Sequence record: PV730302.1
Direction: 5' to 3' (one strand)
From: a phage
DNA length: 64,000 nt
A program made the translations under genes and the position numbers. Every line of letters starts with the position of its first letter. Positions within the stretch are counted from its first letter, which is position 1. The notes beneath the pieces were generated by a model, which did not search any database, was not told the DNA's origin, and was given only the letters and a program-made list of their open reading frames with translations. Positions 23,845 to 63,563 of the stretch are shown here, piece after piece.

Positions 23845-23880
23845 TCTATAGTAACACGACGCTTTTTGTGTGTAAACCAC
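23845..23880 (-). promoter_or_regulatory. T4 early-type promoter (GTTTAC, about 17-18 nt spacer, TACTAT)
   Basis: Minus strand reads GTTTAC..N17-18..TACTATAGACC upstream of ORF 23552..23818. Confidence 0.5.
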
Positions 23881-23883
23881 TTT

Positions 23884-23891
23884 TATAAATA
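23884..23891 (+). promoter_or_regulatory. T4-type late promoter TATAAATA (gp24)
   Basis: Exact TATAAATA about 30 nt upstream of gp24 ATG. Confidence 0.6.
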
Positions 23892-23920
23892 AAATTATAT
23901 TCTCAATAAGGAAAATAGCA

Positions 23921-25201
23921 ATGGCTAAAATTAACGACCTTTTAAAAGAGTCGACCATTACTTCGAGTTCTTCGATTGGTCGTCCAAATTTAGTAGCTTT
24001 AACCAGAGCTACGACCAAACTTGTTTATACCGACCTTGTAGCTCAGCAGCGTACTAACCAACCTTTGGCTGCTCTATATGGTATCAAATATCTTACAGAA
24101 AAAGATGAATTATCTTTCCAGACGGGTGCTACTTATTCCGGTGCAGTATCCGCTAAAGACCGTGCCACTATCCCAGTTTTCACTGCAGGTGCTGTTTACG
24201 CTAAAGATGATTTGTTCCAATTTGAAAACGTAGTTTATAAAGCTTTGGTAGCAACACCATTTGCAGGTGCTACTGGTGATGAATACGAACAACTTCAAGA
24301 AGCTATTGTTAAGTTGACTATTCGTATTATGTCTGACGCCGCACTGACTGAGCGTTTTGAAGGTCCTCAAGAAGTAGATATTTCTGAAGCTAAATTCGTC
24401 GTTAATAAATGGAACGCTCCAGTTAAATCCCGTAAGTTGAAGAGCACTGTTACTGTAGAACTGGCTCAAGACCTCGAAGCAAATGGTTTCGATGCCCCTA
24501 ATTTCTTGGAAGACCTCCTGGCTACTGAAATGGCTGATGAAATCAACAAAGATATTCTTCAGTCCCTGGTTACGGTTTCCAAGCGTTATAAAGTTGAAGG
24601 TTTGTGTGATGATGGCTTAATTGACCTGAGTTATGCTAACTCACCAGAAGCTTCTCGCAAGCTTTATGAGATAGTTTGTGAAATGGTTTCTCATATCCAG
24701 CGCGCAACCTCTTATACGGCAACTTATGTGGTAGCGAGTACTCGTGTAGCTGCTGTTCTGGCTGGTTCCGGATGGTTAAGACACACCCCACAGAACGACA
24801 AATATCTTTCTGCAAATGCATACGGATTCCTGGAAAACGGTTTGCCGGTGTATTGTGATACCAACACGCCAATTGATTATGTTACTGTAGGTGTTAAAGA
24901 GGAATTTGGTGGGAAAGAAGCAGTAGGTTCTTTGTTCTATGCGCCGTATACAGAAGGCCTTGATTTGGCTGACCCTGAACATGTGGGTACATTTAAAGTG
25001 GTTGTTGACCCTGAAAGCCTGCAACCATCTATTGCATTAATGGTTCGTTATGCACTGGCTGCTAACCCTTATACGGTTACTGCTGATGATAAACAAGCCC
25101 GTATTATTGATGCGACTAATATGGATTTGATGGCGGGACGTTCTGATATGTCTGTATTGCTTGGTGTGAAACTTCCTAAAGTTTTGACTGAATTAAACTA
25201 A
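23921..25201 (+). CDS. gp24: Capsid vertex protein gp24
   Basis: 426 aa; paralog-like to gp23; TATAAATA at 23884-23891. Confidence 0.9.
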   Translation: MAKINDLLKESTITSSSSIGRPNLVALTRATTKLVYTDLVAQQRTNQPLAALYGIKYLTEKDELSFQTGATYSGAVSAKDRATIPVFTAGAVYAKDDLFQFENVVYKALVATPFAGATGDEYEQLQEAIVKLTIRIMSDAALTERFEGPQEVDISEAKFVVNKWNAPVKSRKLKSTVTVELAQDLEANGFDAPNFLEDLLATEMADEINKDILQSLVTVSKRYKVEGLCDDGLIDLSYANSPEASRKLYEIVCEMVSHIQRATSYTATYVVASTRVAAVLAGSGWLRHTPQNDKYLSANAYGFLENGLPVYCDTNTPIDYVTVGVKEEFGGKEAVGSLFYAPYTEGLDLADPEHVGTFKVVVDPESLQPSIALMVRYALAANPYTVTADDKQARIIDATNMDLMAGRSDMSVLLGVKLPKVLTELN

Positions 25202-25202
25202 C

Positions 25203-25233
25203 AAAAAAGGGACCTCACGGTCCCTTTATCATT
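25203..25233. terminator. Bidirectional terminator between convergent gp24 and rnlB
   Basis: AGGGACC-tcac-GGTCCCT flanked by A-run on one side and T-run on the other. Confidence 0.65.
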
Positions 25234-26240
25234 TATTTGGATACTAGGTCAATCCATACATGTCTTAATGTTTCTTTTACAGACTCGATGAGTTGCTTTT
25301 TAACTTCAACAGGATTTTCAGCATCAGTTAATTCTAATTCTTCACGGGCAGCTTCTTCTAAGATATCTTGGACTGTCAAGCCCATTACCTTTCCAAAATC
25401 CTTCGGCGATACTTCACCAATCTTACTGATGACGTTGTTAATGCGGTTAACAGTCACATAATCAGTGAATTGCCACATCAAGTCCATATCGTCTTGGGAT
25501 AAAACCACTGCAACTTTAATAGGCTTATCAGACTTTTTCTTCTCGCTGAATTTAGAGTTCTTACATTTAATCGCTACACGATTTCCATTAGGAAGCCAGA
25601 GTGGGTAGCAAGGTTTTAATACATACCCTTCAGCCGTAAATACTTCGCCTTTTGCTTCAGCATTCCACACATGGGTATTAGCTTCAATTAGCCCGACGTT
25701 ATCTACCATAAAATTATAATCAGGAAGGACGGAATCTAAATCATTTGGCAATTTAATAAGGTCTTCAAATTTACCACGTCCTAAAAGTGGAGCCAGTTTA
25801 AATCCAAAGGTCTTACAAAATGATTCCATCATATAATCATCGACATAGGTCACATCACCGCTTTCGGTGGTAACAATAATGTCAAATACATAAAAATCTT
25901 TAGCACCGTAATCAACATTCTTCTGAATGCCCGTTCCAGCGAATTCACCGAAAACTTGATAAGATACAGCTGCCGAAGTTTCCATAATATCTTGTACGGC
26001 TTTAATAGAATCAGCATAGTTCTTAAGTACAATTTCATAACCATAGAAATCTTCAGCAGGGAGGATAGGGCCAGTGCGCTTGGCGCATGTGACTGCGTCA
26101 CGTTCTATGATTAAACTAAAGTTGGTCCCATGAATCTTCTCACGTGCTGCCCATTCACCACCAGTCAAACCGTTAGTACGGAGTTTTTCGATAAACTTAT
26201 TGTTGTAGTGGTTTTCGAGACTGCTATATTTCTTGAACAT
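25233..26240 (-). CDS. rnlB: RNA ligase 2 (Rnl2)
   Basis: 335 aa; strong similarity to T4 Rnl2 incl. KIHGTNFS adenylation motif. Confidence 0.9.
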
Positions 26241-26324
26241 AAATCACCATAATAAATATAATTAAATAGAAGAGCTAGTAGTCTTCTGTCACCAAGCCAA
26301 ATGGTTTAACGGAAGGACCTAGAC

Positions 26325-26354
26325 CCATTATATCACACCTAAATTTAAAGCATA
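26325..26354 (-). promoter_or_regulatory. Candidate T4 middle promoter (MotA box TGCTTTA + TATAAT) for rnlB
   Basis: Minus strand: aTGCTTTAa, 13-nt spacer, TATAAT, about 90 nt upstream of rnlB ATG. Confidence 0.45.
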
Positions 26355-61596: not shown

Positions 61597-62174
61597 TTGT
61601 ATACTGTTTCCGTCAGTGTAGTAAGTTCGTCTATTTTATACCAATGGGTTTCAAGCATTTCACGTTGACGAATTTCATGAAGGAAGTTTTCTTCCAATTG
61701 AACCGTAGAATTCACACGGTGACATTTCTCAATACGAGAAACAACTACTTCGTCAGCATACGGTAGTGCAGCATATAATAGAGCAGGGCCACCGATTACG
61801 CTTACCTTAGAATCCTGACCAAGCATAGCCTCGAATGGTGCATTAGGACTTGATACTTGGATTTCACCGCCTGAAATAAAGGTTATGTATTCGGCCCATG
61901 TGATATAGAAATGAGCAAAATCACCATCTTGGGTTGTGGGATAATCACGTTCAAGGTCGCATACTACGATATGGCTACGGCCCGGTAATAATGTAGATAA
62001 TGATTGGAATGTTTTGGCACCCATAATCATGATTGTACCTTCAGTACGAGCTTTAAAATTCTGGAGGTCCTTTTTAACTCGTCCCCATGGAAGCCCATCG
62101 CCTAAACCGAATGCATTTTGGTCGATACCATCAACTGTTTTAGTTGGAGCATAAGCAAATACTAATTTAATCAT
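61593..62174 (-). CDS. frd: Dihydrofolate reductase
   Basis: 193 aa; overlaps td start as in T4 frd-td; DHFR fold motifs. Confidence 0.88.
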
Positions 62175-62512
62175 TTTAATTCCTTAACTGCATTTTTAAT
62201 AGCAGTAAAATCTTTACGAAGTTCAATAACCAATTTATAAAGATGTTTAATGGTATCGGTATCAAAATACGCTACCGCACAACGTGATTCACGGATTTCT
62301 TCTAATGAGTACTTGCTTTCGCTTGACCCGTACCCAAGAATACCACTGATACATTTATTGGTAATTTTATATTTCTGCGGGCTATCAATAATATTTTTAG
62401 GATGGATGTAAAGGCTCCACTCGAATTCATGGTCAAGATGGTTAACCTTAACTTCAAGAACCAGCTCAGGGTGTGCATCATCTTTAGCAAAGCAAGTGTA
62501 TTCAGCAAGCAT
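62171..62512 (-). CDS. Hypothetical protein (frd.1 position)
   Basis: ORF 62171..62749 trimmed to internal ATG ([12 protein letters not shown]) so it does not overlap the next gene. Confidence 0.45.
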
Positions 62513-62522
62513 TATATTTTCC

Positions 62523-62762
62523 TCACGCTTTCTTAGCGATTTTCCAGTCAGCTTTAAATTGGTCAACGTCTGAGTGGTGAATCCAGAAACCCGATGAGCT
62601 ACCGTCTTCGTAAAGAGGACAACCATCACACTCATCTTTCCACCCCATTGCACACAAAGCTTGTTCAGCTTTTTCCAGAGCTTCCGGGTTATTACCTTGG
62701 ATTGTGAAGTACCATTTGCCTTTAACTTCAGAATCGTTGATTGATTCACGTTGTAATTTCAT
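62523..62762 (-). CDS. Hypothetical protein
   Basis: 79-aa ORF with Cys cluster (CDGCP). Confidence 0.45.
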   Translation of the reverse strand: MKLQRESINDSEVKGKWYFTIQGNNPEALEKAEQALCAMGWKDECDGCPLYEDGSSSGFWIHHSDVDQFKADWKIAKKA

Positions 62763-62838
62763 TTTATTCTCCGGTGTTTAGTTGTTATCTCAGTATGGGG
62801 CCATTATATCATAGCCCCATTTGGCTGTACACCACTTT

Positions 62839-63216
62839 TTACTGAATATCAAAAGTCGCTTTAATCAGGGCAATGACTTCAGCGGCATTTTTGTGATTGA
62901 CTTGTACATGAATGGTTTGGGTATCAATATCAGGGGCATCGCTATCAACTTCTAGGAAGTGACAGAATTCCCATTCACCGAGTTCAAAGTACTCATCAGG
63001 CCCACCCATACTATTCAGGATGGTGCCATCTTTCATTTCAACTTTTTCAACAAAATAATCACCTTCAATATAACTCATATCCAGGACTTTGAAGGAATTG
63101 CCATGTCGTTCCATCAACCTGACCATGCACGAATTATAATTATCATCAGGACTACCAGCGATGAATTGTTTTTTAGCAGCAGGGTCTAATACGTAAAATT
63201 TACCAGTTTCCATCAT
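62839..63216 (-). CDS. Hypothetical protein
   Basis: Track ORF begins at a non-ATG codon; start set to ATGATG (MMETGKFYV) preceded by GAGGAA; hairpin 63239-63262 upstream. Confidence 0.5.
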   Translation of the reverse strand: MMETGKFYVLDPAAKKQFIAGSPDDNYNSCMVRLMERHGNSFKVLDMSYIEGDYFVEKVEMKDGTILNSMGGPDEYFELGEWEFCHFLEVDSDAPDIDTQTIHVQVNHKNAAEVIALIKATFDIQ

Positions 63217-63274
63217 TTTAATTTCCTCATTTTTGTTGAGGGAACATATTATCATGTTCCCGTCGGTTTGTATA

Positions 63275-63502
63275 CTAAGCTTCAATCAAATTCATATAAA
63301 ATTCAGCGTCTTCCGGGTGCATCCCTTCGCAATATTCATTTTGCATAAAGCGGGTAAGGTCTTCAAGAGGACCTTGGACTTCAATTTGAATACTAAAGAA
63401 TTGGGTATCTTTAATGTAAGTCATACACAAAGAAGGATAACGATTACGGATAACTTCGTAAGTGTATTCAAAATCAACGATATCAATATTAACCTTAGCC
63501 AT
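63275..63502 (-). CDS. Hypothetical early protein
   Basis: Start at second ATG ([13 protein letters not shown]) after GAGG; GTTTAC-N17-TACTAT promoter at 63532-63563. Confidence 0.5.
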
Positions 63503-63531
63503 TTTATTTTCCTCACTCATTAGTTGATAGG

Positions 63532-63563
63532 TCTATAGTATCATGTTTAAAGCAGATGTAAAC
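63532..63563 (-). promoter_or_regulatory. T4 early-type promoter GTTTAC-N17-TACTAT
   Basis: Upstream of ORF 63275..63502. Confidence 0.5.

Follow-up and report, generated by a model that had tools for sequence, protein, structure and literature searches.

A family of probable T4-type early promoter cassettes on the minus strand of a Dhakavirus coliphage

On the minus strand of a phage genome, sequence record PV730302.1, a GTTTAC motif recurs in front of small genes, which raises the question whether these sites form one promoter family and to which class such promoters would belong. The stretch of this DNA that was analysed, referred to here as the window, is 64,000 nucleotides (nt) long. Six of the sites had been listed in the original prediction, which read them as T4-like early promoters sharing a TA[CGT]TAT hexamer and an AGAC extension, each followed by a strong ribosome-binding site (RBS) and a small gene. 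Judged by its database matches, the window is DNA of a Dhakavirus coliphage (JS98/IME08-like, T4-type): the regions 38-48 kb, 44-64 kb and 23.3-32 kb matched Dhakavirus coliphages, including IME08, MX01, QL01, JS10 and AnYang, at 92-97% identity in several pieces (megablast). Its minus-strand genes at 38-64 kb are the T4 early block in the order alt, 30, 30.x, rIII, 31, cd, pseT, alc, rnlA, denA, nrdB, nrdA, td, frd, frd.1-3, ending just before gene 32, and its plus-strand genes are late structural genes. The best explanation, and a very probable one, is that a Dhakavirus phage uses these sites as early promoters of the T4 type. The promoter family itself is already known from T4 and RB69; the original prediction correctly recognised it, with some errors of detail, in a further genome.

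The existence of a minus-strand motif family was confirmed by scanning both strands for GTTTAC-N15-19-TA[CGT]TAT with 100 shuffles as the null. Five exact matches were found against 0.24 expected, and none of the 100 shuffles reached five. All five (23877, 38412, 47244, 54452 and 63563, sites being named by the coordinate of the 5' G of the -35 on the minus strand) lie on the minus strand with a gap of N17 or N18. A position-weight model trained on the window sites, controlled by Markov shuffles and leave-one-out, gave exactly 11 window sites, all on the minus strand, at 26-41 bits; the next-best candidates scored 10-11 bits and the shuffle maximum was 12. Leave-one-out scores of the 11 sites were 9.9-34 bits, and a reduced model of the -35 block and TGn/-10 only gave 11 minus-strand and no plus-strand window sites. 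The looser scan and the position-weight model add five members to those listed originally (63275, 62832, 51203, 47687 and 26623); the positions first given point to the AGAC extension, with coordinates 3-4 nt lower than those of the -10 hexamers. All 11 model sites lie a predicted leader of 22-35 nt before a Shine-Dalgarno (SD) sequence and ATG. The SD sequences are of the types GAGGAG, GGAGAA, GAGGAAA and GAGAGAA, and the products of 69-184 amino acids (aa) comprise Alc, alt.-3, 30.7, 30.8, frd.1, a frd.2-like open reading frame (ORF), frd.3 and four ORFs of no known function. For the six sites listed originally, the strong RBS (GAGGAG, GGAGAA or GAGGAAA, with ATG) and the small gene (75-166 aa) hold in every case. 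The 11 units, each from the -35 to the start codon, are as follows.

63500..63563, minus strand: cassette 63563, before frd.3 (75 aa); -35 GTTTAC 63563-63558, TGA, -10 TACTAT 63540-63535, then AGACCTA, predicted +1 at about 63528; in-frame upstream ATG 63520, real ATG 63502.
63214..63275, minus strand: cassette 63275, before the frd.2-like ORF (125 aa); -35 GTATAC 63275-63270, TGA, -10 TAATAT 63251-63246; out-of-frame mini-ORF ATGAGGAAATTAAAATGA, real ATG 63216.
62760..62832, minus strand: cassette 62832, before frd.1 (79 aa); -35 GTGTAC 62832-62827, TGA, -10 TATAAT 62808-62803; SD GGAGAA, ATG 62762.
54392..54452, minus strand: cassette 54452, before alc (166 aa); -35 GTTTAC 54452-54447, TGT, -10 TAGTAT 54429-54424, then AGACTTA; in-frame upstream ATG 54409, real ATG 54394.
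53096..53162, minus strand: cassette 53162, before a 99-aa ORF (phrog_2364); -35 GTTTAC 53162-53157, GAG and no TGn, -10 TATAAT 53138-53133; SD GAGGAAA, ATG 53098.
51141..51203, minus strand: cassette 51203, before a 184-aa ORF (phrog_5804); -35 GTTTAC 51203-51198, TGA, -10 TATGAT 51179-51174; out-of-frame mini-ORF ATGAGGAAATCGAAATGA, real ATG 51143.
47615..47687, minus strand: cassette 47687, before gene 30.8 (122 aa); -35 GTGTAC 47687-47682, TGA, -10 TACTAT 47664-47659, then AGACAT.
47172..47244, minus strand: cassette 47244, before gene 30.7 (121 aa); -35 GTTTAC 47244-47239, TGT, -10 TATTAT 47221-47216, then AGACCTG.
38352..38412, minus strand: cassette 38412, before alt.-3 (96 aa); -35 GTTTAC 38412-38407, TGG, -10 TACTAT 38388-38383, then TACCTTA and no AGAC; out-of-frame mini-ORF ATGAGGAGAACATTATGA, real ATG 38354.
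26562..26623, minus strand: cassette 26623, before a 69-aa ORF (phrog_1566); -35 GTTTAC 26623-26618, TGT, -10 TAAGAT 26599-26594; SD GAGAGAA, ATG 26564.
23816..23877, minus strand: cassette 23877, before an 88-aa ORF (phrog_6003) that lies antisense between genes 23 and 24; -35 GTTTAC 23877-23872, TGT, -10 TACTAT 23853-23848, then AGACCTA; in-frame upstream ATG 23833, real ATG 23818.

The -35 is exactly GTTTAC in eight of the 11 sites, a TAnnnT -10 hexamer stands 17-18 nt after it in all of them, and the extended -10 TGn is present in ten. A clear upstream A-run was seen in about seven (63563, 62832, 47687, 47244, 38412, 26623 and 23877). Around the predicted start, C occurs at -3 in ten sites and G at -5 in seven, with T at -1 and A at +1 in most. 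The claim that the six originally listed sites share TA[CGT]TAT stood for five, but the site around 53130 reads GTTTAC-N18-TATAAT-GCTCC with neither TGn nor AGAC. On their upstream side the cassettes abut other genes, the stop codons of rnlA, alt, frd.3, cd.3 and 30.8 lying 0-5 nt from a -35; the -35 of 54452 overlaps the TAG stop of rnlA and that of 38412 the TAG stop of an Alt-like gene. Pfam identified two Alt-like ADP-ribosyltransferase genes in the window. They stand in tandem (708 and 694 aa; 38412-42623, minus strand) directly upstream of the alt.-3 promoter, whose -35 overlaps the stop codon of the first.

In the comparison with the published consensus of T4 early promoters that the original prediction had called for, GTTTAC, TGn and TAnnnT agreed, and the A-rich -40s did so clearly in about seven sites. 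T4 early promoters have been described as 'UP/-35/TGn/-10' with additional consensus regions (Hinton 2010 review, PMC2988021). Published work on RB69, RB49 and 44RR gave GTTTAC at -36 to -31, A-richness at -40 to -44 and C as the preferred base at -3 to -1, together with a GT-rich stretch 5' of -12 in the predicted early promoters (Nolan et al. 2006, PMC1524935). The model also transfers to other genomes. In the four Dhakaviruses scanned it gave seven matches in JS10, eight in QL01, eight in EcWhh-1 and nine in IME341, and in two stretches of T4 of about 50 kb, 1-50 kb and 120-169 kb, it gave 11 each; none of these matches is on the plus strand. Seven of the 11 window sites have a T4 match before the orthologous gene (alt.-3, 30.7, 30.8, cd.2, alc, frd.1 and frd.3), cd.2 being the T4 gene downstream of the cd.3/cd.2 gap and the counterpart of cassette 51203. 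Between cd.2 and cd.3 of T4 stands an early promoter that its RefSeq record calls 'Pe133295', and the T4 dmd promoter match coincides with a documented early promoter (PMC9391042).

Several observations weigh against this assignment. The -35 has one mismatch in three of the 11 sites (GTGTAC in 62832 and 47687, GTATAC in 63275), site 53162 has GAG instead of TGn, and 63275 scores just 9.9 bits in leave-one-out. The upstream A-run is weak in 63275, 54452, 53162 and 51203 and carries modest information per column. The comparison with T4 orthologues covers T4 1-50 kb and 120-169 kb and the window sites other than 23877 and 26623, and in this phage the early class is read from sequence and orthology. 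A scan for the generic sigma-70 consensus was not enriched over shuffles (54 versus 56 expected, and 44 versus 55), so that only the T4-specific model detects the family. This equal frequency of generic sigma-70 hexamers is also what speaks for the alternative that the matches are chance sigma-70-like sequence in AT-rich intergenic DNA, or else belong to the MotA middle or the gp55 late class. Chance is countered by the excess of exact matches (5 versus 0.24), by the strand distribution (11 versus 0) and by the SD and ATG 22-35 nt downstream of every site. As for the other classes, the sites have GTTTAC and not the MotA box TGCTTNA or the late box TATAAATA, both of which occur elsewhere in the window before other genes. 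Taken together, the alternative is highly improbable.

The other T4 promoter classes were found at the expected positions. Middle-promoter candidates (TGCTT[TA]A, 11-13 nt, TAnnnT) lie on the minus strand at 26327-26352, 48915-48939 and 60345-60369, upstream of rnlB, gene 31 and nrdA, and the pattern is not significantly enriched (6 versus 3.2 expected). Of the late box TATAAATA the window has 17 copies where 7.3 would be expected; most of them stand before late genes on the plus strand. The one for gene 24 (23884-23891, plus strand) stands back to back with 23877 and overlaps its A/T-rich upstream tract.

On the early-promoter reading, host sigma-70 RNA polymerase would recognise the sites immediately on DNA entry through the T4-specific GTTTAC, TGn, TAnnnT and a UP-like A-rich region near -40 to -45. 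The start point would fall some 7 nt beyond the -10 hexamer, in most cases on the A of ...C C T A, which places the predicted starts at about 63528, 63239, 62796, 54417, 53126, 51167, 47652, 47209, 38376, 26587 and 23841. The resulting leader of 22-35 nt would contain a strong SD and precede a small early gene. AGAC(C/T) at -6 to -2 would combine family-wide start-site preferences with a Dhakavirus-specific AGA, and in some copies or orthologues this region would also pair with part of the -35/-10 spacer, the spacer supplying the 5' arm and the AGAC region the 3' arm of a hairpin. A cassette of about 65-75 nt, present in 11 copies in the window, would comprise the promoter, the leader and the RBS. 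Both function and recombination between copies, the latter as in the published PeSL elements, would contribute to keeping the copies alike. Start sites, early timing and the roles of single bases are predictions from the sequence. The cassettes would define the immediate-early transcription units of the phage, and at minimum the T4 transcription programme appears conserved in the Dhakavirus genus.

The AGAC extension proved to be less general than first proposed. It is present in four of the six sites listed originally (23877, 47244, 54452 and 63563), but the site around 53130 has GCTCC and that around 38380 TACCT; it also occurs in the unlisted 47687, making five of 11. Dhakavirus-sized contigs in IMG/VR each have at least 8-13 copies of the strict pattern GTTTAC-N17/18-TA[CGT]TAT-AGAC[CT]TA, all of them on a single strand, and other T4-like contigs have one to four. 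AGAC(C/T)TA occupies -6 to +1 in about half of the window copies versus none of the 22 T4 matches. In orthologues of 23877 and 63563, the -35, the -10, AGACCTA and the leader are invariant, and the 15-nt spacer is present in several unrelated versions, one of which, gcctttaaaca, is common to the non-orthologous frd.3 and frd.2a promoters. Orthologues of 23877 (L017, L034, L090; window 23854-23871, minus strand) differ between the UP tract and the start codon in nothing but the spacer, of which there are at least three versions. On sequence comparison, the invariant blocks next to a variable spacer point to constraint on the -35, the -10, AGACCTA and the leader, and the spacer versions suggest that patches were exchanged between cassettes rather than altered by point mutation.

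Such constraint bears on the proposal that AGAC(C/T)TA is a separate functional element of Dhakavirus, either a discriminator or start signal or the binding site of a phage shut-off factor. The abundance of the strict pattern in Dhakavirus contigs on one strand, its absence from all 22 T4 matches and its invariance in orthologues of the 88-aa ORF (ORF88) and of frd.3 despite differing spacers all favour this proposal, as does the G at -5 in seven of the 11 window sites; G at -5 is said, in work ascribed to Haugen et al. 2006, to be the base favoured by sigma region 1.2. AGAC is however present in just five of the 11 window sites, and in several orthologues the region is merely the 3' arm of a hairpin, CTATAGACCT, whose 5' arm AGGTCTATAG lies in the spacer. 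The motif is not palindromic and no candidate binding protein was identified. Moreover, C at -3/-2, a pyrimidine at -1 and a purine at +1 are already general in RB69, RB49 and 44RR (PMC1524935). A separate element is thus unlikely; on present comparisons the AGA would be a Dhakavirus flavour added to a start context, C at -3/-2, pyrimidine at -1 and purine at +1, that appears to be family-wide.

A further feature of the leaders is an ATG directly 5' of the RBS, which had been described as out of frame and as the reason why listed ORF starts are often false. ATGAGGA or ATGAGTGAGGA was found 5' of the real start in six of the 11 cassettes. In three of these, 38412, 51203 and 63275, the upstream ATG is indeed out of frame and opens a 5-codon mini-ORF whose TGA overlaps the real ATG (ATGA); here the ORF list was not misled. 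But in 23877, 54452 and 63563 it is in frame, and because of this the ORF list is too long there (93 versus 88, 171 versus 166 and 81 versus 75 aa). Here it is the in-frame and not the out-of-frame ATG that causes the false starts. That the downstream ATGs are the real starts is supported by alignments with PHROG and Pfam profiles, which begin at the first residue of the shorter products: Pfam Phage_FRD3 covers residues 1-74 of the 75-aa frd.3 product, and the alignment of the 166-aa alc product with the PHROG 'inhibitor of host transcription' likewise begins at residue 1. About 8-10 nt separate the predicted 5' end from the upstream ATG, which lacks an SD. Since its frame and spacing vary (offsets 14, 15 and 18 nt), the idea that it marks a conserved mini-ORF or coupling peptide was rejected. 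Among 104 cassette instances in IMG/VR contigs, 25 have ATGAGGA and 22 of those 25 are out of frame, so that the original generalisation fits the wider family better than the window.

Two other starts in the ORF list are false. The one at 26603 lies inside promoter 26623, and the one at 46800 extends the 30.6 ORF from an ATG inside a GGAGGC-TTCG-GCCTCC hairpin (window 46765-46800), the homologous 30.6 start in JS10 corresponding to window 46767. The in-frame ATG in ATGAGGAG and ATGs in promoter or hairpin thus give false long ORFs at 23833, 54409, 63520, 26603 and 46800. The RefSeq annotation of AnYang (L099 253-534 and 3055-3303) uses such starts, with 93 for 88 and 82 for 69 aa, and at least two false upstream starts have therefore been propagated in a RefSeq relative.

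About half of the window cassettes have a predicted RNA hairpin anchored inside the promoter. Strong inverted repeats enclose the -10 in four of them, with -12.7 to -18.8 kcal/mol and z scores of -3.6 to -6.4: GGGAACAT/ATGTTCCC in 63275 (63246-63263; -12.7 kcal/mol, z -6.4), ATGGGGCTAT/ATGGCCCCAT in 62832 (62797-62822; -17.6 kcal/mol, z -5.4), GGGAGCA/TGCTCC(T) in 53162 (53128-53150; -13.7 kcal/mol, z -3.6) and GGTACAGGT/ACCTGTACC in 47244 (47204-47236; -18.8 kcal/mol, z -6.3). The read-through RNA of 62832 folds at -21.4 kcal/mol (z -3.9). Cassette 38412 has a weak hairpin within the spacer (-8.1 kcal/mol), and no hairpin was found in folding of cassettes 63563, 23877 and 51203. The stems also change in a compensatory manner. 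Cassette 53162 is near-identical from -35 to +10 to the T4 cassette upstream of motB (L002 7215), a non-orthologous locus, and the two, otherwise alike, have GGGAGC/GCTCC in the window versus GGGACC/GGTCCC in T4. At the locus of 51203, the alleles of JS10, QL01 and EcWhh-1 have the hairpin GGTAGGACT/AGTCCTACC, versus GGTAGAG/CTCTACC in the cd.3/cd.2 promoter of T4, and the T4 30.7 promoter retains a hairpin, GGTACAGG/CCTGTACC. In a wider set of 158 non-redundant cassettes from the window, its relatives, T4 and IMG/VR loci, duplexes of -12 kcal/mol or below between spacer and post -10 sequence were found in 13.3%, versus 0.2% when spacers were paired with downstream segments of other, mismatched cassettes. 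No U-tract follows the -10 hairpins on either strand, which makes classical intrinsic termination unlikely, and their candidacy as intrinsic terminators was dropped. The whole window gave no match to Rfam, and the leaders and hairpins are accordingly not known RNA families.

Terminator-like hairpins were found just upstream of two cassettes only.

47715..47736, minus strand: terminator-like hairpin ATGGGACTC-TTCG-GAGTCCCAT followed by TTTTTG, about 28 nt upstream of the -35 of 47687.
26648..26665, minus strand: terminator-like hairpin ATGGGCC-TTTC-GGCCCAT followed by TTTG, directly upstream of cassette 26623.

With 47687 and 26623 respectively they make up composite terminator-promoter units. 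These two and a plus-strand hairpin at 23517-23538 share the form ATGGG...(TTCG/TTTC)...CCCAT.

A second kind of pairing involves the SD. In the alc promoter the spacer TCTCCTCAT is the reverse complement of the alc SD region ATGAGGAGA (54385-54446, minus strand), and in the predicted fold of the read-through RNA (-21.9 kcal/mol, z -4.36) the whole SD pairs with the spacer. A weaker case is 47687 (47617-47681, minus strand), where UCUCCGG of the spacer can pair with CUGGAGA in a duplex of -12.6 kcal/mol, the whole read-through fold being unexceptional (z -1.2); the pairing was not found in the other nine window cassettes. Among the 158 cassettes, spacer-SD duplexes of -12 kcal/mol or below were found in 20 (12.7%) versus 1.5% of mismatched pairs, and duplexes of -14 kcal/mol or below in 9.5% versus 0.5%. 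In the unselected T4 set they were found in 3 of 16 versus 0.9% (P = 3e-4), and T4 instances are alt.-3, alc, ndd.4 and motB.2 (L006 3093, 16336 and 46807; L002 8218). Spacer and SD co-vary in IMG/VR loci, as in CTCCTGTAG/CTACAGGAG, CTCCAGTAG/CTACTGGAG, CTCCTTTAG/CTAAAGGAG and CCTCATCAG/CTGATGAGG, the longest pair being the 13 bp TTCTCCTCTAGTT/AACTAGAGGAGAA. RNAalifold recovered the helix with compensatory changes in five of eight pairs from 14 cassettes that had been chosen for pairing, so that this alignment is illustrative only.

Some broader versions of this pairing were rejected. Family-wide masking of the RBS is not found, mean SD accessibility being 0.39 versus 0.41 with shuffled upstream sequence, and it is the tail of the distribution that is enriched, with 19 of the 158 cassettes beating all 30 shuffles versus about 5 expected. 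The ATG 5' of AGGAG as the partner of an anti-SD applies to 54452 only and fails in 23877, 38412, 63563, 63275 and 51203. A comparison of the alc promoter across genera, made from a single-protein query with few distant loci, does not show a generally conserved helix: the pairing is kept in Dhakavirus and, with different sequences, in T4 and one other lineage, and two further lineages have a -10 hairpin instead, or none.

Since the 5' arm always lies upstream of the start site, the helix is possible only in read-through RNA. It is tentatively proposed that in a minority of cassettes, about 10-13% overall and here alc and perhaps 30.8, a spacer anti-SD co-varying with the SD masks the RBS in read-through RNA, RNA from the gene's own promoter being freely translated, although this is rather less than an even bet. 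Masking of this sort could plausibly tie translation to the gene's own early promoter. It is also plausible on the gene arrangement that translation could be coupled to the upstream gene, the RBS being exposed when a ribosome terminates there; at alc the rnlA stop overlaps the -35, and a terminating ribosome would therefore cover much of the 5' arm.

The cassettes are also repeats. Gene 30.8 is flanked by a 55-nt direct repeat (47170-47224 and 47613-47667, 95% identical) that spans -10 to start codon and is the largest of its kind in 44-64 kb; most other direct repeats are cassette fragments. The 35-nt leader of 47687, which ends in CTGGAGAATAAAATG, is the same in 47244. In T4, a stretch of about 55 nt is the same in the alc and the alt.-3 cassette. 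Some of the differences between the window and its four relatives fall at cassettes. Genes 30.7 and 30.8 are missing in JS10, where one junction falls on the 30.6 SD and the other on -10/+1 of 47687 (47655), and QL01 and EcWhh-1 have a different 30.8 body from the first codons to the -35 of the next cassette (breakpoint 47243). In all four relatives extra ORFs are inserted exactly at the ATG after 53162 (junction 53095-53099). The frd order is frd.3, frd.2-like, frd.1 in the window (62523-63889), IME341 and T4, versus frd.2a, frd.2b, a hypothetical ORF, frd.3, frd.1 in JS10 and EcWhh-1 (L001 17684-19294), with breakpoints at cassettes 62832 and 63275; in JS10, QL01 and EcWhh-1 the whole frd.1 cassette 62832 is swapped for a different allele. 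About six of the 14 junction regions versus the four relatives touch a cassette (47243, 47655, 53095-99, 62772-62836, 63258-63293 and partly 58002). The cassettes appear to be the main dispersed repeats where Dhakaviruses gain, lose and swap small genes.

From this it may be asked whether it is chiefly duplication and gene conversion that preserve the shared sequence, AGAC(C/T)TA and the CAAC..ATGAGGAG leader included, the cassettes being PeSL-type linkers that move small ORFs and most of their positions not being individually selected. This overlaps with the early-promoter reading and does not exclude it. The 55-nt repeat around 30.8 and the other long repeats made of cassette pieces speak for it, as do the identity of the T4 alc and alt.-3 cassettes, the spacer allele gcctttaaaca common to frd.3 and frd.2a, the different cassette alleles before the same frd.1 gene, and the JS10 junctions, which lie at the same kind of place as the crossovers of PeSL mini-circles, mapped between -10 and SD (PMC2839356). 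Other junctions, however, lie away from cassettes, at 46173/46487, 50023/50367, 57194/58002 and 60386/60674, and correspond to indels of an ORF at 46175-46483, an ORF at 50022-50393, a methyltransferase insert and nrdA.1. The genome is dense, with few other intergenic gaps (middle-promoter-like ones) for comparison, so that enrichment of junctions over other intergenic sites cannot be shown. The ORF88 orthologues, with invariant -35, -10, AGACCTA and leader but scrambled spacer, speak for selection on blocks. Whether the likeness is mainly a product of copying is, on this evidence, evenly balanced.

The methyltransferase insert between nrdA and nrdB is a gene for a 267-aa D12-class (Dam-like) N6-adenine methyltransferase (57213-58016, minus strand), which is absent from the four relatives and has its own hairpin TGACTC...GAGTCA and a ATGAGGAGTAATATG start region. 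Its reading as a homing endonuclease was rejected, since Pfam gives the D12 methyltransferase instead.

Compared with T4 early (Pe) promoters (Liebig & Rüger 1989, as cited in PMC9391042), the cassettes have the same GTTTAC, TGn, TAnnnT, 17-18 nt gap, restriction to the early strand and short leader with strong SD, as well as an A-rich tract in about seven of the 11, and T4 also has ATGAGGAG leaders (dmd) and spacer-anchored hairpins. They differ in that the -10 is more often TA(C/T/G)TAT than TATAAT or TATAGT, and that C at -3 is near-invariant in the window but not in T4. The early promoters of RB69, RB49 and 44RR resemble them in the GTTTAC-type -35, the A-rich tract where it is present, the GT-rich stretch 5' of -12, C at -3 to -1 and the frequent position before small novel ORFs, but the JS98/Dhakavirus group was not in that sample (PMC1524935). 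Neither a promoter study nor a published promoter logo for the Dhakavirus genus was found in the literature searched.

PeSL cassettes have been described in RB49/phi1, T4/PST and KVP40/nt-1 (Arbiol 2010, PMC2839356; Comeau 2014, PMC4122927), with the T4/PST promoter consensus TTTACW-N17-TAYWAT; JS98 is named there only in passing, for the gene 43 region. By sequence, the window cassettes appear to behave like these elements. As in the published cassettes, the stem-loops of some window copies occupy the -35/-10 interval or extend over the -10, and some indel junctions resemble the PeSL crossovers, which fall from -10 to SD. Many repeated copies are dispersed through plastic early regions, here 11, bounded by an upstream stop codon and a downstream SD/ATG. 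In contrast to PeSLs, a convincing stem-loop is present in just 4-6 of the 11 window copies, and the stems are without following U-tracts.

Hairpins that mask an RBS and contain an internal promoter are known from T4 e, soc, 49, I-TevI/II/III and segB and from Aeh1 mobE (PMC3014915, PMC2988022). Pairing of the SD with sequence upstream of the start, as in T4 e, soc, 49 and I-TevI, is also predicted for 54452. The reviewed internal promoters are however late, or the gene is a homing endonuclease, whereas the window promoter is of the early type and its 5' arm is the -35/-10 spacer itself. The T4 reviews contain no description of spacer-SD pairing at early promoters (older primary T4 literature was outside the search), and this complementarity in a subset of cassettes may be the sole part of the present findings that is new. 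If this holds, a logic known from T4 e, soc, 49 and I-TevI, with a late promoter inside the hairpin, would reach immediate-early genes as well, and the 'free' promoter spacer would have a coding role at the RNA level; if functional, the pairing would provide compact insulation or timing of early-gene translation and a reusable design for synthetic promoter-RBS units.

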